A DNA stretch of 48,388 nt, from assembly GCA_049423385.1 (NCBI GenBank), contig JBMSQQ010000014.1, positions 1 through 48,388 on the forward strand, written 5' to 3'. The position numbers and the translations under genes were made by a program. Origin of the DNA: Silvanigrellaceae bacterium. GTDB taxonomy: Bacteria > Bdellovibrionota_B > Oligoflexia > Silvanigrellales > Silvanigrellaceae. Numbering within the stretch: position 1 is the first letter of the stretch; each line of letters opens with the position of its first letter. Under the pieces are notes generated by a model. That model searched no databases, was not told the origin of the DNA, and was given only the letters and a program-made list of their open reading frames with translations. Positions 4,634 through 18,597 of this stretch are shown piece by piece.

Positions 4634-7600
4634 TCAGTTGATCGGATCCTCGCTGTTGAAGGTATCGTCGATTTTGAACTTTGGAATAGGGAAATCATGA
4701 TGCAAATTGTCCTTGCCAGGTGTCGGCGTTGCAGCCGGAACTGCATTTTTTGCCATGTCTCCAGGAGGTGGTGGCAGCGAATTCCCCATTGGTCCCGCAA
4801 GGTCATCCTTTTTCTCTCCAGGCGCCACTGCATCGGAGGTTGGGGGTTGCAACAACTGTTCTTTTGTCTCGTGGTTTTTCACCCGAACACTCAGTGGAGA
4901 AACACGCCGCGTCGGGACAAACAATCCATCACTGTATCGACCTGCAAGTGCCACTCGCAACAAGGAATTCCGGCTCGTTGCATAGTCATCAATCAGAGCA
5001 TTCAGGTCTGCACGGGAATTGTCGGAATCATCACTGTCACTGTCCGAGTTGGCAATCGATGCACCGTAAACGGGTACGGTGATTCTTTGCACGTCTGAAC
5101 CAAATTCAAATGGAATCTCGCTGAATTTCTTTTCAACCATCGGTTTCCAATTCAGCTTTTCCGAAAATTTCTGCTCACGGATCAGAGTCTGGGCGATCTC
5201 AATCCAGGCCGGCAAGGCACCCGTACCACCCGCAACCTTGAATCCGCGCCTGCGCATCGGCTCGTTTGTGTCGTAACCAACATATGCAGCGATGGTATAC
5301 GCACTCTTGGCCGACAAGGAACTTGAACCTGAATCCTCGGGATAGGGAAGAAATCCAACATAAGTGGCATTGACGTAGTCGTTTGTCGTACCCGTCTTTC
5401 CAAACGTGGGAATTCTCAAGCCTGCTTTTTCGAGCACAGCATCATCAACAGTATTTTTGGAGCGCAGGACAACCGTTCGATTGGCCGCACGTGCCGTGCC
5501 ATTCGTGACTGTCCCGCGCAAAACACTCATCATTTGGCTTGTGAAGAATTCATCAACAAGCTGGTGTTCTTGCTGGTCCGCTTCCCAGAGAAGATTTCCC
5601 TGCTCATCCTCAATACGCTTTATCAACAAAAGCTGGTTTTCCTGCTCAGTGTTGAAATATCGATAAGTCTTTCCTTCAAGAATCGACTGATAAGAAAGTG
5701 CCAACTCGGCAAGGCTGACAACATTCGCACCCAGCGGAAACGAAGGGACCCACTGCACATCACTTTCAATTCCCATTTGTCGGGTCATGAATTGGGCATA
5801 AATCATGCCAAGAGAGTAACGAAAATCGTCATGCCAAAACAATTTCTCCATGGGCCCTGAATCAGCAATGGACTTGTACTTGACCTCAACCTGCTCCTTG
5901 AGTTCAGCGATGAGACTCATGGGAACCAAACCGTCCAGGAGAACATTCTCCTCAGAGAACAGGGAAATGTTTGATTCCGCCAAACTCACAACTTCCTCGG
6001 CCTTGAGTACTCGGGGTTTTGGAGTTTCCAAAAGCGGCGTCACAACGCCCAAATCAAAAGGATCTGACGACTGAAATACAATACTTCTATCGACAGCATA
6101 AAATGGAGCAAGTGCAACAAGATCTTCCTTTGTCAGCAGCGCTTTGTTCTGTGCCAGAGACTTGACCTTCTCGATGGCCGCGCGCGCCTGGTCGCGCATC
6201 GCATCCCAGCGAAGAAAATTGTTTTTAAGAATTTGAAGCCGAATCAACTTTTCCTTCTCGGGCATCGATTTGGGCTTTGCAGCAGCAACACGGGCTGTTT
6301 CCGCCTCAAACCCGGTACCGAAATTCATGGACCTCAAAATGGTTCGAAGCATTTTGTCCTGGGCCAGGGTAACATCTTCGAGCAGCTCGTTCTTCACGCC
6401 ACCAAACAAACCTGCCCTGAGATTCGGTTCCACCAATCTTGCGTTGTATTTTGCCGCAAGTCTGTTTGCCACGTCCGATTCATTTTCTCCGGACTTTGCC
6501 ATCTCGAGCGTGACGAGCAAATCCTTGAATTGCGAAAACGTGAGACGATCCAACAAATGCGCCAGCAGCCAAACGCTTGCGAGGTTTTCCGATTTGGCAC
6601 CTGCGCCGGCAAAAGTGGTTTCCAGCGTTTCAGGTGAGTGGTCTGGTCTGGGATAATAGAATTGCCCTTGCCATGTATACACGTTTCGGGTGTTGAGAAG
6701 AGGCTCAAGAATGTGCCAGCCCAACTGTAGTGCAGGATAATAGGTCAGTGTCTTGAATGTCGAACCCGGTTGCCGCTTTGCGAAAACCGCTCGATTGTAT
6801 TCGTGAGGCGCATAGCCGCCCACCATGGCAACCACCTGCCCCTTGTCCAACACAATCGCAGCACCCTGGATACGTGGTTGGCGCTCCAGGTCGCAGACAA
6901 GTCGACCATCGGGACGTTGTTCGCGCACGCTGACCAAAACAAAGTCACCAACATTCAACTGCGACAAAAGTGCTGCCTTCGACTTGTCCAACCCCCGATA
7001 AAGCGCCTGATCGGTGATTTTGGCAACGCGCTCAATGGCATCCGAAGGAACAAAACATTCCGGCACGCCGAGACTCACGGTTGCCGACTCCTTGGTCTTC
7101 TCCTTGGAAATCTGCAACAGTTTGCCAACGTAAAAGCTGTGCACATCCGGACGCTGAATCGAAACGAATTGGGCCGCGTTGGACTTTTCAAATCCAGTCA
7201 GAATCATTTCAAGACGGCTCAGGTTTTGCCGCACACCATACAAAGCCCCCTGCTGAACAGCTTGATCCAGAGTCGTTGTGATGCGCAGCCCCATGGAACC
7301 AACTTCTTCTGCGTTCTCCGCTCCCAATGCAGTCAGGACTTCTTTTCTGGCAAGTTGGCGCTGAACAAGTTCTGTGATGAAAAGTTCATTGAACTGAAAC
7401 TTGCCTTGCTTGAACGGCACCTCTTCCTTCGATGCCTCCTCGAATTCCTTTGCAGTGATGAACTTGTTGTCCAGCATGCGCTTCAAGACATAATTCTTGC
7501 GAATTTTTGCGTCCAGCTTTGCCTTGGTTTGAGCTGCTGCGGCACGCTTGGTGAATGGATTGTAGCGCTCAGGACCCTTGACGCTTCCGGCAATGAAGGC

Positions 7601-8200
7601 AGCTTCCGTCAGGGTCAACTCTTGCGCATCCTTGTCGAAATAATATTTCGCCGCAACACCAACGCCACGTCCATTGCCCGTGACGTGAAATTGATTCAGG
7701 TAAAATTCGAGAATTTCGTCTTTGCTGAATCGACGTTCCATCTTGAATGCATTGATGGCCTCTTCGAATTTTGCCCGCAAGTTGGTGACGGGACGGCCGT
7801 AGAGATTCTTCACCGTCTGCTGCGTGATTGTCGAAGCACCTTCGCGCTTGCCCATGACAATGTTTCGAAAAGCAGCACGGGCAGTGCTTAAAACATTGAT
7901 GCCTCTGTGTTTGTAGAATTCGTCATCCTCGGCAGCAACAACACCCTGTTGAAGCAACTTCGGAATCTCCTTGAGCCGCATGTATTGGCGATGCTCAGAG
8001 CCGAAAAGACTTCCCAATTGTGTTGTTCCGTCGCTGTAGTACAGCATTGTTTCCTTGGAGAGAATTTCAAGGATTCGCTCTTTCTTGAGGTGGTCGTAGT
8101 TGCCGCCAACGACCTCGAAAAATGCAAAACCACCCAAGGCAATGGGCGGCGCGACCAACAAACTGCCAGCTGCAACGAGCCCGACAACCATTTTATTCAT
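4634..8200 (-). CDS. mrcA: Class A penicillin-binding protein (PBP1A-type transglycosylase/transpeptidase) with large insertions
   Basis: GT51 motifs EDDEFYKHRG and GASTITQQ. Transpeptidase motifs STFK, SEN and KTG. N-terminal membrane anchor. Confidence 0.88.
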   Translation of the reverse strand: MNKMVVGLVAAGSLLVAPPIALGGFAFFEVVGGNYDHLKKERILEILSKETMLYYSDGTTQLGSLFGSEHRQYMRLKEIPKLLQQGVVAAEDDEFYKHRGINVLSTARAAFRNIVMGKREGASTITQQTVKNLYGRPVTNLRAKFEEAINAFKMERRFSKDEILEFYLNQFHVTGNGRGVGVAAKYYFDKDAQELTLTEAAFIAGSVKGPERYNPFTKRAAAAQTKAKLDAKIRKNYVLKRMLDNKFITAKEFEEASKEEVPFKQGKFQFNELFITELVQRQLARKEVLTALGAENAEEVGSMGLRITTTLDQAVQQGALYGVRQNLSRLEMILTGFEKSNAAQFVSIQRPDVHSFYVGKLLQISKEKTKESATVSLGVPECFVPSDAIERVAKITDQALYRGLDKSKAALLSQLNVGDFVLVSVREQRPDGRLVCDLERQPRIQGAAIVLDKGQVVAMVGGYAPHEYNRAVFAKRQPGSTFKTLTYYPALQLGWHILEPLLNTRNVYTWQGQFYYPRPDHSPETLETTFAGAGAKSENLASVWLLAHLLDRLTFSQFKDLLVTLEMAKSGENESDVANRLAAKYNARLVEPNLRAGLFGGVKNELLEDVTLAQDKMLRTILRSMNFGTGFEAETARVAAAKPKSMPEKEKLIRLQILKNNFLRWDAMRDQARAAIEKVKSLAQNKALLTKEDLVALAPFYAVDRSIVFQSSDPFDLGVVTPLLETPKPRVLKAEEVVSLAESNISLFSEENVLLDGLVPMSLIAELKEQVEVKYKSIADSGPMEKLFWHDDFRYSLGMIYAQFMTRQMGIESDVQWVPSFPLGANVVSLAELALSYQSILEGKTYRYFNTEQENQLLLIKRIEDEQGNLLWEADQQEHQLVDEFFTSQMMSVLRGTVTNGTARAANRTVVLRSKNTVDDAVLEKAGLRIPTFGKTGTTNDYVNATYVGFLPYPEDSGSSSLSAKSAYTIAAYVGYDTNEPMRRRGFKVAGGTGALPAWIEIAQTLIREQKFSEKLNWKPMVEKKFSEIPFEFGSDVQRITVPVYGASIANSDSDSDDSDNSRADLNALIDDYATSRNSLLRVALAGRYSDGLFVPTRRVSPLSVRVKNHETKEQLLQPPTSDAVAPGEKKDDLAGPMGNSLPPPPGDMAKNAVPAATPTPGKDNLHHDFPIPKFKIDDTFNSEDPIN

Positions 8201-8988
8201 GGAACTTTCAACTCCAGGGAAATCGGACAGTGATCAGAGCCTTTGACCTCGGCATGGATGCCTGCTGCCAAGACGTTCTTCACAAGGCCCGGCGTAATAA
8301 AATGATAATCCAGACGCCATCCAATGTTTCTTTCCCGAATGCCAGGGCGTTGACTCCACCAGGTGTAGTGACCACCCCCCGCTTGAAACATGCGGAATGT
8401 GTCGACGTAACCATGTCCGATGAACTCGCTCATCCAGGATCGCTCTTCGGGCAGATATCCAGCGTTTTTTTCATTTTGTTTGGGATTCGCCAAATCAAGC
8501 GGAGTGTGGGCAATGTTGAAATCTCCGCCCACCACGACTTCAAATCCCTGCTTGCGCTTCGCTTCGAGAAATTCAAAGAATTTCCTGCAAAAATCGATTT
8601 TGTAGGGAAGCCTCAACGTGTCTCGCTGGGAATTCGGAAAATAGGCCGATGCGATGAACAGATTTCCAAGCTCAATTCCCAAAAACCGACCTTCAGAGTC
8701 GAATTCGTTCGCTCCCAAACCATATACAACGGACTGTCGCTCCACAGGCAAGCGAGAGTAAATGGCCACGCCGCTGTAGCCTTTCTTTTCTGCCGGCATC
8801 CAGAAGGAATTGTAGTCGAGGGGCGAAATCCACTCACCTTGCAGATCTTCCTTTGCACAACGCACTTCTTGCAGGAGAAGAACATCTGGCCTGGTTTCCT
8901 CGAGCCAGTTCATGAAGCCGTTCTTCACTGCCGCACGGATTCCATTCAAGTTCCAGGAAAAAATTCTCACCTTTTTTGTCACAATCAT
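8197..8988 (-). CDS. xth: Exodeoxyribonuclease III / AP endonuclease
   Basis: SWNLNGIRA, LLQEV, GYSGVA, GDFNIAH, YTWWS, GWRLDY and GSDHCP motifs. Confidence 0.96.
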   Translation of the reverse strand: MIVTKKVRIFSWNLNGIRAAVKNGFMNWLEETRPDVLLLQEVRCAKEDLQGEWISPLDYNSFWMPAEKKGYSGVAIYSRLPVERQSVVYGLGANEFDSEGRFLGIELGNLFIASAYFPNSQRDTLRLPYKIDFCRKFFEFLEAKRKQGFEVVVGGDFNIAHTPLDLANPKQNEKNAGYLPEERSWMSEFIGHGYVDTFRMFQAGGGHYTWWSQRPGIRERNIGWRLDYHFITPGLVKNVLAAGIHAEVKGSDHCPISLELKVP

Positions 8989-10385
8989 TCCTCAAAAGTC
9001 TGCGCCAATTCCTTGCTCACGCAACTCAGCGCCCGGGTGTACATGGCAGGTGCCCAAAGATTGAACTGACGGGCAACCGGGCCAACCCGGGTGCTCTTGT
9101 CCGTCAGGGCGTGAAAGAAATTTCCACGCAACGTCAGGCTTGTTGAATACTTCAATTTGCCTCGTTCAAAGACCTTTGCACCATCTGCATCCAGAGCGAA
9201 TTGCCCGGTCAGCGGATCGAGTGACATTCCCGTCAAGTTCTGGATTTGAATGTATGACTCAGTGCTCAATTCACCCATGGGTGGTGCGTTCAAACGAAAC
9301 AAAACGTTGGTGAAGGAGGTCGAATTGACTCCCTCGGCATGGCCCGTCAATTCGAACCGCCCCTTCCAATCGGGATGAATTTCCAGGATTTCATCCAGCA
9401 GGGCAGAAGTCATCAGGGGATGAACGAGATTCCCTTCGGAGAGAATTGTCACCGGTTTCGTGGCGGTCCCCTCGAAATCAAAATAGGAAGAAAACGGTGA
9501 GCCTTCAATGTGAGGATTATCCTCAATCGACAGATTTCCAATGACCACCTGGCCGACCTGATCCAGTTCCCATGCACCGGTTTTGTCCAGCAACGACCGG
9601 GTTTCCAAATTCGGCATGACGAGCTGATCAAGCAAATCAATGACTGCCTTGTGGGTGAGAAAAACAGGTAGGCCTGCATCTGGACCCAGCGGCATCACTG
9701 CTGAACGGGATATATTCTTTGATGCAACCTCAACAACTGAAGAAAGCTCATCATCGGAAGGAATACTTCCAAACACATCATAATGGCTCTCAACAGTGTC
9801 TTCGAGCGAAAATGAACAGGATGCACTGCAAGAAGCAGATATTTCCTGAGCAAAGTTCTCCACGGAATCAAAGTACAACTTGTCGCATCTGGAAAAGGTC
9901 ACCGACAATTCACGATTCATCAAGCGTGGATGTGAGATTTTTCCGGCGTGAATTTCGAGGCGTTGCAAAATATCGAGAAGCGCATTCGACACAGATCCGC
10001 CATCAAAAAGAGCGATCAACTCATCCGAAGCAAGCTTGAAATTTGGATATTGAGCCTGCTTGCGCAAGTCCACCCGGTGTTCGAGTTCAACCGACTGTGA
10101 CAATGCAAATTCAAACTGATGCACAAACAATGCCATCGAAACCGCTTCAAGACTGAAACCCACACTCCGCCCTGCAGGAAGCAGCAACGTCACCTGAAGG
10201 TCAAATGGCGAATTTGTCTGGAGCGGCGCCTTGCTGTGCCGTTCACCATTGAACAACGATGCCGTGTGAATCTCTTTTCGCCAGAGGGTGCAGGAAAATC
10301 CATCCAGGATGCCGAGCCGCAAATTCGACTCAAGATGCTCCTTTATCGACTTTACAAACTGCATTGGCAGATGACTTTTCTTCAT
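8985..10385 (-). CDS. TldE/PmbA-family protein (divergent)
   Basis: C-terminal PmbA-type motifs (IEDNP..SSYFDFEG, TGHA, TGQFAL, LRGNF) and no HExxH. Directly downstream of a TldD-containing gene. Confidence 0.75.
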   Translation of the reverse strand: MKKSHLPMQFVKSIKEHLESNLRLGILDGFSCTLWRKEIHTASLFNGERHSKAPLQTNSPFDLQVTLLLPAGRSVGFSLEAVSMALFVHQFEFALSQSVELEHRVDLRKQAQYPNFKLASDELIALFDGGSVSNALLDILQRLEIHAGKISHPRLMNRELSVTFSRCDKLYFDSVENFAQEISASCSASCSFSLEDTVESHYDVFGSIPSDDELSSVVEVASKNISRSAVMPLGPDAGLPVFLTHKAVIDLLDQLVMPNLETRSLLDKTGAWELDQVGQVVIGNLSIEDNPHIEGSPFSSYFDFEGTATKPVTILSEGNLVHPLMTSALLDEILEIHPDWKGRFELTGHAEGVNSTSFTNVLFRLNAPPMGELSTESYIQIQNLTGMSLDPLTGQFALDADGAKVFERGKLKYSTSLTLRGNFFHALTDKSTRVGPVARQFNLWAPAMYTRALSCVSKELAQTFEE

Positions 10386-15879: not shown

Positions 15880-16790
15880 TCCCACCCTTTTGGCTCAGAA
15901 CAGACAAGATTTCCAGAACCATCACTGCAGCACTTGCAGTTGTTGGCCTGCTTGCAATTGTCGTTGTTGCCATTGGAATCAAGGCATCCGCAGAAAACAG
16001 ATCCCAAAAACAAATCCGCGACTCGGCAGATGTTCAAAATATCAAACAAACGAAAAATGCGTCTGCTCTGGTTGAAAAAGAAAAGCGCTACGAAGGCAGC
16101 GCGGTCATCAGTGAATGGCAGGCGTTTGTTGTTTATCATCCTTCATCGGAAATAACCGAGGATTCGCTGTTTCTGGATTCGAAATACAGACCTTCTGGCG
16201 GCGACTCTTCAGACAAAACAAAAGCCGGCACGGACCATCCGCAAGGTATTGTTCAGGTGCTTGGAGCCCGCTCACTGCTTCCAATACTGCGCATGGCATT
16301 TGGCGACCAGGCCAGAGGAGCCGCAGCAGCAGAACGCGACCCATGGTTTTTCACCCATCCAACTTCATTTTTCAATCCACAACAGACGAAGAGTTTGTGC
16401 GGAAGAGACATTGATATTGAAGCGGATGAAGGATCGGATATCTGCTGGAAACCAAAACTTACGAACGAATATCTCGAGACTCTTACCGACTTTGCCGGAG
16501 ACGCCTGTCCTCAACTTGTCTTGAAGGAATCCAAACAGGACAATCGCTTCATGAACAAACTTATGCGTTCATCGACTTTCTCTCCGCAAGCACTCAGACA
16601 TTTCGCAATTCAGGCTCTACACATTCCGCAAGACAGGGCCAGCGATGAATGGATCAACCACATCATGAGCGAAAGCAAAAGGTCAATTGAAGCAGAATTG
16701 GAGAGTCAGAATCAGGAGGCAAGTGCGGAAGAATTGTACGCTCTCGCTTGTCAGGAGATGCTTTTGTCCAAAGAATTCTACTCCAGATAG
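15876..16790 (+). CDS. Hypothetical membrane-anchored protein, translationally coupled to the CxxCH gene
   Basis: ATGA overlap, N-terminal TM helix, C-terminal ACQEMLLSKEFY resembling the ends of DUF1553/1595-type domains. Confidence 0.55.
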   Translation: MIPPFWLRTDKISRTITAALAVVGLLAIVVVAIGIKASAENRSQKQIRDSADVQNIKQTKNASALVEKEKRYEGSAVISEWQAFVVYHPSSEITEDSLFLDSKYRPSGGDSSDKTKAGTDHPQGIVQVLGARSLLPILRMAFGDQARGAAAAERDPWFFTHPTSFFNPQQTKSLCGRDIDIEADEGSDICWKPKLTNEYLETLTDFAGDACPQLVLKESKQDNRFMNKLMRSSTFSPQALRHFAIQALHIPQDRASDEWINHIMSESKRSIEAELESQNQEASAEELYALACQEMLLSKEFYSR

Positions 16791-17476
16791 GGTTCCATCC
16801 TGTTTTTCAATTCTGCGATCGACAAAATATCATAATCAATGTTCAACTCATCCCTACGAAAAAAGAACACGGCATCCCGTTTATTGGCCGCATCCACTTC
16901 AAGGATCTGGGATGATCCTTGATTACAGGTGCTTTTCCACAAGCTGCCCAAGGACCACTCGCCGGCCGACTCCACCACTGCGGCCTGCTTGTGCTCAATG
17001 AGAGACATCAACGAAAAACCTTTGTCATGCGAAAGTTGTGCAAGGTCGTGTCGAAAAGGCGCGCAGCGAAGGCGCCATACGGTCATTCCACAGCGCATCA
17101 AACACTCAAGTTGTGAAACAGAAGGGTGTTCTCTTTTTCCGGAAAGTGAATCAATGAACTGAAGAGCCGCGCTTTCCGCATCACGACACGTGGTCTTTGA
17201 ATTCTCAAGAAAATCGAGAGCCAGCCTTGCCAACTCCCGAACACCAATCCAACGGGCAGCATTCGCGAAAAAGTTTTCAAGCCAGTAAAGAACGATATGG
17301 TACTGCGAATGCTGGTGATGATACGCAATTTTCGAAATCTGTTCATGCGCAGCAACGTGAATCAATCCGTCTGCCCAGTGATTTTTTCCTTCATTCCTCT
17401 GCTTGAATGCTTCAAAAATCAACTGCTCAAAAGCCAGATGCGATGATGTTTCTGCGATATTTTCCTGTTTTGTCAT
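16778..17476 (-). CDS. DUF2063-like (HvfC/BufC-type) partner of a DUF692 protein, divergent
   Basis: LENFFANAARWIGVRELARLALDFL...QFIDSL..LECLMR resembles the DUF2063 pattern L..FP.....G...F..LA..Y....F..FL. It starts 1 nt after the DUF692 stop. Confidence 0.5.
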   Translation of the reverse strand: MTKQENIAETSSHLAFEQLIFEAFKQRNEGKNHWADGLIHVAAHEQISKIAYHHQHSQYHIVLYWLENFFANAARWIGVRELARLALDFLENSKTTCRDAESAALQFIDSLSGKREHPSVSQLECLMRCGMTVWRLRCAPFRHDLAQLSHDKGFSLMSLIEHKQAAVVESAGEWSLGSLWKSTCNQGSSQILEVDAANKRDAVFFFRRDELNIDYDILSIAELKNRMEPYLE

Positions 17477-17477
17477 T

Positions 17478-18368
17478 TCAAAGCTCTCCCAATCTTTTCA
17501 GGGTGCTTTGCCCATTGATGATTTCGTTGACAAGAGATTCCTGCGAAACCAGGGGTTCAAACCACTTGAGGAAAATCGCCTTGTGTTCTCCGACAGGAAG
17601 TGCACGCAGCACATCCTCAAGAAGACCCCAGTGGGTCACAGACAAACGGCCGCACTCGGCATCAATCGCTCCATGATTTGAAACAGCCAGTGCACCAACA
17701 CGCACACTCACCACATGATCGAGTGGGAATTTTGCCAATTCGCTCTCGAAGTCCAAATCCTGATGAAAAAGGCTCACGTAATACGCCGGGATATCGAGGA
17801 GAACTTTAGACTGGGTTGCATCAACCAACCGTGCCCAGAATTCGGTTTCCGACAGGGTATCGAAGGAATATCGAAACATTGAAGACACGTTGGTCAAGGC
17901 AATTTCTCGGCCGAGCCAATCCTGCATCCGCCTCACATGATTCGCCACATGATTGACAAGCTCGAGCGTTCGCGGAACAGGCATGGGCACGTGCAAGGCG
18001 TGTCCGGGCTGGGAATCAAAACCCACAGCAAAGGTAACCCACCGCGGTGAAATTTCTGCGACACATTCCTTGATGCTCGTCAGGTACATTTCTGAAGGTT
18101 GAATCTTGGCTGCAAGGTTGGAGAGGCGAGAGAACAGAGAGACGTCGGTTTTCTGCGCAAAGTGTCTGGCCCAGGAGCGATCCACAGAACCTTTCCCCTG
18201 GCCAAGCAGGCGATCGAGGCACACTTCCAGTGCCGGCAGGTGACCAGCATTGGCAAAGGACTCACACAAGTGCGGCAGCAAGGGCAATCCCCATTTGTAG
18301 GACGCGGCATCGAAAGGTGTTCCCTTCAACGACCAGTCCATTCGTGGTGCAGCTCCAAAGTCGCTCAT
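17478..18368 (-). CDS. DUF692 / MNIO-fold protein with degenerate metal ligands
   Basis: Scaffold matches DUF692 (PRWV.., PMPVPRT, VRRMQDWLGREIAL.N, SETEFW, LLD, FPLDHV). Start at ATG 18368 after GGAGAGG; the ORF is open from 18383. Confidence 0.75.
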   Translation of the reverse strand: MSDFGAAPRMDWSLKGTPFDAASYKWGLPLLPHLCESFANAGHLPALEVCLDRLLGQGKGSVDRSWARHFAQKTDVSLFSRLSNLAAKIQPSEMYLTSIKECVAEISPRWVTFAVGFDSQPGHALHVPMPVPRTLELVNHVANHVRRMQDWLGREIALTNVSSMFRYSFDTLSETEFWARLVDATQSKVLLDIPAYYVSLFHQDLDFESELAKFPLDHVVSVRVGALAVSNHGAIDAECGRLSVTHWGLLEDVLRALPVGEHKAIFLKWFEPLVSQESLVNEIINGQSTLKRLGEL

Positions 18369-18510
18369 GTCCCTCTCCCGCATGGCACAAACTACATTTA
18401 TTCAATAATAGCCTGATGACCTTTCGATTTCCGACCCCACCATTTTGCACACAAGTGCACCCACCTGCGAACGCAAGTGCCAATTCTGCGGCAATAGTGA
18501 TTACTTTGAT

Positions 18511-18597
18511 TGGTGCTCTCAGCCGGAATCGAACCGGCACGGCCTTGCGGCCAACGGATTTTAAGTCCGTTGCGTCTACCAATTTCGCCATGAGAGC
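18511..18597 (-). tRNA. tRNA-Leu (anticodon TAA), CCA encoded
   Basis: GCTCTCA..TGAGAGC acceptor stem, D-loop TGGTAGA, anticodon arm ACGGA-CTTAAAA-TCCGT, long variable arm GGCC-GCAA-GGCC, GGTTCGATTCC and 3' ACCA; 87 nt. Confidence 0.97.

Follow-up and report, generated by a model that had tools for sequence, protein, structure and literature searches.

A homologue of the multinuclear iron-dependent oxidative enzymes with most iron ligands replaced, maintained with a divergent DUF2063-type partner in a Silvanigrellaceae-like lineage

The window analyzed here, the whole stretch of 48,388 nt of contig JBMSQQ010000014.1 from a Silvanigrellaceae bacterium, contains 41 long open reading frames (ORFs), two of which lie side by side on the minus strand next to a tRNA-Leu(UAA) gene (Table 1). 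The first, ORF1, encodes a homologue of the MNIOs (oxidative enzymes that depend on multinuclear non-heme iron) in which most of the iron ligands are replaced; the second, ORF2, encodes a divergent partner of the DUF2063/BufC type; and the two genes are maintained together in related genomes. Taking ligand loss, maintenance and partner identity jointly, we hold this description to be very probably correct. An earlier reading, made from the sequence alone, had proposed an intact and full-length gene pair of this kind, with a good ribosome-binding site, tight coupling and no adjacent precursor gene, and at the level of the locus these proposals stood. Both ORFs are uninterrupted and are separated by a single nucleotide (the TGA of ORF1, one A and the ATG of ORF2). 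The start of ORF1 is most likely the second ATG, at position 18368 (Met 6), because 22 of the 27 listed relatives are 296 aa long, the peptide MSDFGAA is the start of, or is contained in, the full-length aligned relatives, and the purine run GGGAGAGGG is found immediately 5' of this codon. Residue numbers below are those of the 301-aa form of ORF1, except where the 296-aa numbering is stated. The 3' end of ORF2 is overlapped by a convergent gene of 304 aa, and fabG diverges beyond the tRNA gene. As to a precursor, the tRNA gene occupies the upstream side and the convergent gene the downstream side; a 30-aa ORF within the spacer was considered and rejected because the spacer is not conserved and leaves no room for it in other loci, where it measures about 25 nt.

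Table 1. Features at and around the gene pair (positions in the window).
Feature	Position	Strand	Description
ORF1 (ligand-depleted PF05114/MNIO TIM-barrel protein)	17478..18368	minus	296 aa if M6 is the start, as is likely; 301 aa when extended to 18383
ORF2 (divergent DUF2063/BufC-type, PME-type-2-like partner)	16778..17476	minus	232 aa; invariant motif HHQH-x-QYH at residues 53-60
tRNA-Leu(UAA)	18511..18597	minus	directly upstream of ORF1; ARAGORN and Rfam tRNA, 63.1 bits
tRNA-to-ORF1 spacer	18369..18510	minus	contains the ribosome-binding site GGGAGAGGG; rest not conserved
30-aa ORF in the spacer	18402..18494		rejected as a precursor gene
Hypothetical gene, 304 aa	15876-16790	plus	converges on the pair
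Hypothetical gene, 484 aa	14425-15879	plus	converges on the pair
Fusion gene, 882 aa	10392-13040	minus	inositol-monophosphatase/HisN-like and TldD/PmbA-type domains
PmbA/TldD-like gene	8985-10385		adjoins the fusion gene

The assignment of ORF1 to the DUF692/MNIO family, made in the sequence-only reading, was borne out by both profile and fold comparisons. The protein matched PF05114 (MbnB_TglH_ChrH) with 106.5 bits (E 1.8e-30, cut-off 25) over profile positions 3-254 of 263. Its best NCBIfam match was BufB (NF050167), with HvfB next, yet the 100.6 bits obtained lie below the curated cut-off of 310, whereas true BufB-type relatives reach 318-371 bits against the same profile. The closest canonical relatives of ORF1 are of this BufB type (P0027 with 370.8 bits and P0061 with 342.5 bits). 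In its AlphaFold model, with a predicted local distance difference test score (pLDDT) of 72.3, ORF1 is a xylose-isomerase-like TIM barrel nearest to the solved MNIOs. The best Foldseek matches of the model were TglH (E 5.9e-16), 3bww (E 1.1e-14) and MbnB (E about 1e-10), with template modelling (TM) scores of 0.64-0.71 (TglH 0.71, MbnB 0.64-0.69), ahead of sugar-epimerase barrels. When MNIO clusters were excluded, an atlas search of ORF1 gave matches at chance level only (0.80). We also considered a role in defence and set it aside, since PADLOC returned no defence-system match for ORF1, ORF2 or their two convergent neighbours.

In MbnB, according to PMC9060507, Fe1 is held by His54, His90 and the bridging Glu133, Fe2 by Glu133, Asp163, His192 and Glu239, and Fe3 by Asn166, Asp208 and His210; single substitutions at His54, His90, Glu133, Asp163, His192 or Glu239 lowered both iron content and activity. 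P0027, a true BufB in which every motif is present, served to map these nine positions onto ORF1, from the order of the motifs and the distances between them. They were then compared between 147 canonical sequences of at least 200 aa each (146 of the 149 listed non-clade profile matches, three shorter ones being dropped, plus P0027) and 23 members of the clade to which ORF1 belongs (Table 2). Seven of the nine are replaced in ORF1, and Asp197 and Asp241 alone are kept. The His, His and bridging Glu of Fe1 correspond to Phe84, Ala119 and Thr164; the His and Glu of Fe2 to Arg228 and Lys273, both invariant in the clade; and the Asn and His of Fe3 to Ala200 and Glu243. The motifs around them read SLFS in place of LHG, RWVTFA for SDH, ALTN for EN, LDIPA for DVNN, SVRVGAL for HLAGH, IDAE for IDxH and LKWF for EWD. 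The last six had been listed in the earlier reading (the first of them as WVTFA), and each was confirmed in the sequence and in the column comparison. That reading had also noted a missing HG near the N-terminus; the column analysis maps MbnB His54 to the LHG motif, where ORF1 has Phe84. An invariant His38, placed after strand 1, was tried as the counterpart of His54 and rejected, as motif spacing and column analysis both place His54 at LHG and His38 is specific to the clade.

Alignment to the MbnB and TglH structures, proposed earlier as a check, agreed with the column comparison: against 3bww, TglH (8hci) and MbnB (7dz9), HMMER showed that in ORF1 the SDH motif has lost its His, EN its Glu and D-x-x-N its Asn. 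To judge from these columns, the multinuclear iron site of ORF1 is dismantled. Because only two Asp are kept of the nine ligands, ORF1 falls, at the sequence level, outside the functional definition of the family: it is a homologue of MNIOs by descent and not a functional member as an iron-dependent oxidative enzyme. Since single substitutions of six such ligands already cripple MbnB (PMC9060507), we infer that O2-dependent oxidation at a di- or tri-iron centre is impossible for the pair.

Table 2. Residues at the nine MbnB-type iron-ligand positions.
Canonical ligand	Canonical proteins (n=147)	Clade members (n=23)	ORF1 residue
LHG His	139/147	H 4/23; L 12, F 6, Y 1	F84
SDH His	143/147	0/23; A 14, S 8, T 1	A119
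EN Glu	144/147	0/23; V 14, T 8, A 1	T164
Asp of DxNN	146/147	23/23	D197
Asn at +3	140/147	0/23; Ala 23	A200
His of HLAGH	139/147	0/23; Arg 23	R228
Asp of DxH	135/147	23/23	D241
His of DxH	133/147	0/23; Glu 23	E243
Glu of EWD	136/147	0/23; Lys 23	K273

The clade is set apart from the canonical enzymes well beyond the ligand positions. The canonical set has 42 columns with a conservation of at least 80%, and 13 of these are kept in the clade; conversely, 44 positions never vary in the clade but seldom carry the same residue in canonical enzymes. These clade-specific invariants include an N-terminal tail (SDFGAA...DW) that has no canonical counterpart and is disordered in the model. There is also a clade-invariant block, Ala242-Glu243-Cys244...Thr250-His251. 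Three basic residues, Arg86, Arg228 and Lys273, also belong to these invariants; the ORF1 model places them at the ends of strands 3, 7 and 8 or close by, and their side chains, together with four acidic ones (Asp57, Asp197, Asp241 and Glu243), would occupy the former metal pocket. The Fe1 positions vary among clade members (Ala, Ser or Thr; Val, Thr or Ala; Leu, Phe, His or Tyr), whereas the replacements at Fe2 and Fe3 are fixed. A search of 1.84 billion representative sequences with the clade profile retrieved 2085 proteins at E <=0.001, among them a single clade representative (P0007, 530 bits), the next match scoring 123.5 bits. In a FastTree phylogeny of 169 sequences the clade was monophyletic with support of 1.0, and its stem was the longest branch in the tree (2.05 substitutions per site; median, 0.23).

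One sequence, P0099, was examined as a possible sister lineage and rejected, as it shows about 44% identity to ordinary MNIOs and 24% to the clade; being nearer to the ordinary MNIOs in identity, it probably owes its position in the tree to long-branch attraction. P0099 and P0199, the latter from a Myxococcales metagenome-assembled genome (MAG), form a second, independent small lineage of MNIO homologues without most of the iron ligands. Their SDH motif has become CDA or VDD, EN has become RN, DVNN has become DVSA or DLSA and HLAG has become RVGA or RISR; the two proteins share 55% identity, and their identity to ordinary MNIOs is about 44%. Sequences poor in ligands also occur here and there among the 147 relatives (P0097, P0159, P0187 and P0140). 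The Myxococcales lineage and these scattered cases suggest, on present alignments, that ligand loss in MNIO homologues happened more than once.

Relatives of both proteins were readily found, 26 for ORF1 at 51-81% identity, mostly of 296 aa, and 21 for ORF2 at 44-75% identity. A genome scan with two clade-specific peptide patterns yielded 11 loci, all of them in MAGs, which are labelled Silvanigrella, Silvanigrellaceae or Oligoflexia or, more vaguely, Pseudomonadota, Proteobacteria, Betaproteobacteria or 'bacterium'. At every one of the 11 loci ORF2 comes after ORF1 (in L005 it is truncated where the contig ends), and the tRNA-Leu(UAA) gene comes before ORF1. As far as the contigs reach, the neighbourhood is collinear: DUF3419, LolA-like, a hypothetical gene of the hyp400 type, M10 protease, fabG, tRNA, ORF1, ORF2, hyp304, hyp484, PP2C and the inositol monophosphatase (IMPase)/TldD gene. 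By the method of Nei and Gojobori, the ratio of nonsynonymous to synonymous substitution rates (dN/dS) of ORF1 was 0.053 for L004 against L005 (dS 0.65, dN 0.035), the only clearly unsaturated pair, and about 0.05 for two saturated pairs. Neighbouring genes used as controls gave 0.014-0.020 (fabG), 0.045 (LolA-like) and 0.07-0.09 (hyp400). For ORF2 a single finite estimate was obtained, 0.031 at a dS of 3.3, which is unreliable; its lowest dN was 0.098. The earlier suggestion that the pair is maintained agrees with the low ratio in the unsaturated ORF1 pair and with the presence of both genes at every locus. The two genes are no relic: they are vertically inherited core genes in a freshwater lineage that is Silvanigrellaceae-like, and the purifying selection on them is strong.

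ORF2 had been described from the sequence alone as DUF2063-like. This was right in substance, although the protein gave no Pfam match, including PF09836 (E up to 1), no NCBIfam match and no sequence match in the PDB. Its model (pLDDT 80.9) has a helical domain at the N-terminus and a small beta/alpha domain after it, and the top three Foldseek matches were TglI (8hi7_A and 8hci_A) and NGO1945 (3dee), with weak E-values (0.04-0.14), probabilities of at least 0.99 and TM scores of about 0.5 (0.49-0.53 for TglI). By atlas features ORF2 is nearest to HvfC/BufC DUF2063 clusters (0.92, with 191 of 256 features in common), and the nearest clusters carry the name 'HvfC/BufC family peptide modification chaperone'. 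An hhalign comparison of the ORF2 family with the C-terminal halves of 35 natural MNIO fusions gave a probability of 95.7% (E 9.4e-9, 150 columns); among eight such fusions tested, six contained PF09836, five of them above the cut-off. Based on the fold search, the atlas features, the profile comparison and the predicted complex described below, ORF2 is a divergent DUF2063/BufC-type partner.

Within the joint alignment, the 35 canonical partners show a Y-R-x-x-Y-x-x-R motif, and at the same positions the clade has the invariant sequence H53-H54-Q-H56-S/A-Q-Y59-H60. The four His of the clade thus stand where canonical partners have Tyr (32/35), Arg (14/35), a variable residue and Arg (25/35). 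As to subtype, PME-type 2 proteins are described as encoded after the MNIO gene, devoid of the Pfam DUF2063 signature and structurally similar to NGO1945 (3dee) and TglI (8hi7), with an N-terminal helical domain and often a domain of the RRE (recognition element) type (PMC12452194). ORF2 agrees with this description, as it begins 1 nt after the MNIO gene, is not matched by PF09836 and has a TglI/3dee-like fold; the profile match to PF09836 that marks PME-type 1 is absent. One relative of ORF2, P0031, is annotated as an alpha/beta hydrolase of 340 aa and covers 79% of ORF2 at 75% identity. It is located on a short contig of 3960 bases, probably reflects a wrong gene call or a fusion, and was excluded from the ORF2 family alignment.

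The two proteins were also modelled together, as had been proposed, and are predicted to form a heterodimer. The complex scored 0.89 (median of three runs), whereas the best of three controls scored 0.02; among 157 solved complexes 116 attained the 0.89 mark, and among 215 mismatched pairs 2 did. The runs agreed in at least 90% of contacts and the pLDDT of the partner was at least 79. In the predicted interface, residues 40-75 of ORF2, the His motif included, face ORF1 loops 122-130, 164-168, 230-235 and 270-273 (296-aa numbering), which form the barrel's C-terminal face, the side that once carried the metal site. The contacts of least predicted error involve ORF1 residues 125-129, in a loop that is variable in the clade and whose His123 and His126 are not conserved.

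The gene order, with the MNIO first and the partner second, the tight coupling and the predicted heterodimer are all shared with BufB/BufC and HvfB/HvfC. Compared with BufB, ORF1 stays at 100.6 bits against the cut-off of 310 and has seven of nine iron ligands replaced. ORF2 is missed by PF09836, unlike BufC/DUF2063, and has H-H-x-H...H in place of the Y-R...R motif. TglH/TglI and MbnB/MbnC (8hi7/8hci, 7tcr, 7dz9 and 7fc0) are the best structural matches of the two models, at identities of only 13-21%. The TglA and MbnA precursors are encoded alongside TglHI and MbnBC. TglH and MbnB hold two or three Fe with a set of ligands that ORF1 lacks (PMC9060507). Core bufferin-related clusters combine genes for a peptide that is made on the ribosome and modified after translation (RiPP), an MNIO, a DUF2063 protein and DoxX (PMC12452194), whereas no bufA-type precursor with signal peptide and Cys residues, and no doxX, adjoins the pair studied here. 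Among the 41 ORFs of the window there was no second MNIO, DoxX, DUF2282, Buf_6/12Cys or bufferin-type precursor, and by synteny the same holds for the 11 loci. While PME-type 2 partners serve presumably active MNIOs in RiPP clusters (PMC12452194), the MNIO of ORF2 has no iron site and no cluster.

MNIO clusters with no identifiable precursor have been described as adjamnio-II and adjamnio-III, but these carry other enzymes upstream (peptidyl-tRNA hydrolase-like and HExxH proteins and nitroreductase fusions), and the passages of PMC12452194 that deal with them do not mention ligand loss; nor do its passages on the MNIO landscape. The supplement of that paper contains 17 rows for Bdellovibrionota, with no entry under Silvanigrella or Oligoflexia among the four taxon names looked for. 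It lists for Bdellovibrio bacteriovorus one DUF692, one DUF2063 and three DoxX genes and no recognised bufferin precursor, which would be another precursor-less MNIO pair in the same phylum. In the literature searched we found no description of ligand-less MNIOs or of MNIO pseudoenzymes, a remark in the main MNIO review remaining possible.

In view of the strong selection that persists despite the replacement of seven of nine ligands, the pair probably does something other than known MNIO chemistry. The interpretation that we favour, with a probability of roughly 0.45, is that of a BufB/BufC-derived heterodimer which lacks the canonical multi-iron oxidation and acts as an iron-independent binding module for a peptide or protein client encoded elsewhere. 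The pair descends from a maturase pair of the bufferin type, made of a BufB/HvfB-like MNIO and a BufC/DUF2063 partner. A network of Arg, Lys, Asp and Glu would probably have replaced the metal cluster, either structurally or as a ligand-binding pocket, and the conserved barrel mouth and the partner interface would bind the client, in a role like that of a chaperone, an adaptor or a sensor.

Several observations weigh against a binding module or weaken the data on which it is built. The whole 16-kb neighbourhood is collinear in the 11 loci, and synteny therefore cannot nominate a client. Most pairs are saturated in dS, the ORF1 ratio rests mainly on one pair, and that of ORF2 comes from one pair with dS >3, not reliable, plus a low dN. 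The complex score may in part reflect likeness to MbnBC and TglHI, because those complexes have been solved, and the pLDDT of the ORF1 model is lowest (<50) exactly at the DAECG loop. Asp197 and Asp241, with Glu243, Cys244 and the partner histidines, could still bind one metal ion. Moreover Arg228, Glu243, Cys244, Lys273 and His251 are invariant in 23 of 23 clade members, a pattern that suits a passive pocket no better than it suits a new catalytic site or metal site.

These last points lead to the strongest alternative, which we consider possible but less probable, namely that the pair is a repurposed enzyme with a working active site in the barrel, a different chemistry and a substrate encoded elsewhere. 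Such a site might be a mononuclear or inter-subunit metal centre (Asp197, Asp241, Glu243, Cys244 and His251 with H53, H54, H56 and H60 of ORF2), or else a metal-free acid/base or thiol site. The earlier reading had inferred a non-catalytic peptide-binding or regulatory complex, or a decoy subunit, all of which are candidate roles; the Arg, Lys, Glu and Cys fixed in the pocket, the 44 clade-specific invariants and the His motif of the partner agree with a repurposed active site at least as well as with a dead one. The invariants are concentrated at the former ligand positions and in the A-E-C-G...T-H-W block, the Fe2 and Fe3 replacements are fixed while the Fe1 positions drift, and selection is strong. 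The four partner His replace canonical Tyr, Arg, variable and Arg positions on a helix that meets the loops of the barrel mouth in the predicted interface. Against a metal centre speak the positive Arg228 and Lys273 at the Fe2 position, and the interface loop with the least error, residues 125-129 of ORF1, is variable, with His123 and His126 not conserved; moreover, no family is known to us to have such a site. It is mainly the Arg and Lys at the Fe2 position that incline us to a binding module rather than to a repurposed enzyme.

A more specific version of the enzyme alternative would make the site a composite one, the histidines having in effect moved from the barrel to the ORF2 helix (H53, H54, H56 and H60), where they would join Asp241, Glu243, Cys244 and His251 in a chemistry or a sensing function unrelated to di-iron oxidation, with constitutive housekeeping expression together with tRNA-Leu. 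We consider this unlikely.

Less probable again is a decoy or regulator, an inactive pair sequestering the precursor or the partner that belongs to a canonical system of the bufferin type located elsewhere in the same genome. The BufB/BufC ancestry, the partner interface retained in the predicted complex and the failure to find a precursor nearby would all suit it, but no active paralogue is present in the 48-kb window, the stretch searched. Furthermore, the pair has its own co-diverged cognate partner, and is not an orphan subunit, and its extreme divergence (stem of 2.05) is a poor fit to the recognition of canonical components. Only a slim chance is left to the view that this is still a canonical MNIO oxidase, with its ligands for iron displaced or provided by other residues. 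The two retained Asp, the LHG His present in 4 of 23 clade members and the clade-specific invariant His38 after strand 1 could be read in that way; however, neither the bridging Glu (now Thr or Val) nor the second carboxylate of Fe2 (now Lys) is kept, none of the four ligand His survives in the window protein, positive Arg and Lys stand at the Fe2 positions in 23 of 23 members, and in MbnB a single ligand substitution is enough to lower iron and activity (PMC9060507). That the pair is left over from a bufferin cluster and decaying towards disappearance, as the loss of ligands, precursor and DoxX might suggest, can practically be dismissed given intact ORFs in 11 of 11 loci (bar the ORF2 cut by a contig end in one), a dN/dS of about 0.05 and a length that is constant at 296 aa across 51-81% identity, with a mean column identity of 68%.

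At present the multi-iron cofactor is what defines MNIOs, and genomes are mined for them on the assumption that each one marks a RiPP cluster. The clade keeps the fold and the partner while it discards the cofactor ligands and the cluster context, and the scaffold made of an MNIO and its partner would therefore be reusable for another purpose. For genome mining this calls for caution, as a match to PF05114 does not by itself imply an oxidase. For studies of structure and mechanism in MbnBC, TglHI and BufBC, the clade also provides a naturally cofactor-free counterpart.

The tRNA-Leu(UAA) gene upstream of the pair is nearly identical in the window and in seven aligned loci, with one base differing, in L004. 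In L008-L010 the distance from the tRNA to the ATG of ORF1 is about 24-26 nt (around 7974-8001 and 5577-5604) and holds the ribosome-binding site alone, so that the pair would be transcribed through the tRNA gene or from upstream of it. In several genomes the tRNA-Leu and the ORF1-ORF2 pair thus appear to share a transcript, and the tRNA gene is a probable co-transcription partner of the pair. A promoter and terminator scan of the spacer in the window gave no useful result, with no sigma-70-like site on the minus strand in 18369..18510, and Rfam detected no riboswitch or other element beside the tRNA. Three loci (L003:3581-4837, L007:6547-7923 and L011:2031-3287) have a gene for a class I aminoacyl-tRNA-synthetase-like protein of 418 aa between tRNA-Leu and ORF1, on the same strand, which is absent at the corresponding position of the window. 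This extra 1.3 kb was considered as a precursor or accessory gene and rejected, since the encoded protein carries the HMGH and KMSKS motifs of a synthetase; we take it to be probably a tyrosyl-tRNA synthetase.

The remaining long ORFs of the window are ordinary core genes, among others those for a PBP1-type transglycosylase, a Der-type GTPase, an RsmB-type methyltransferase, a DAC-domain (CdaA-like) cyclase, a phosphoglucosamine-mutase-like protein and Lgt. Both hypothetical genes that converge on the pair encode proteins without a Pfam family, the 484-aa product having an N-terminal hydrophobic segment and many Cys and the 304-aa product an N-terminal transmembrane-like segment; they are syntenic in every locus that reaches them, as are all the other genes there. 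In the 882-aa protein an inositol-monophosphatase/HisN-like domain (residues ~32-320) is fused to the C-terminal domain of a TldD/PmbA-type metallopeptidase; this fusion is kept in related loci, and its gene is adjoined in the window by the PmbA/TldD-like gene.

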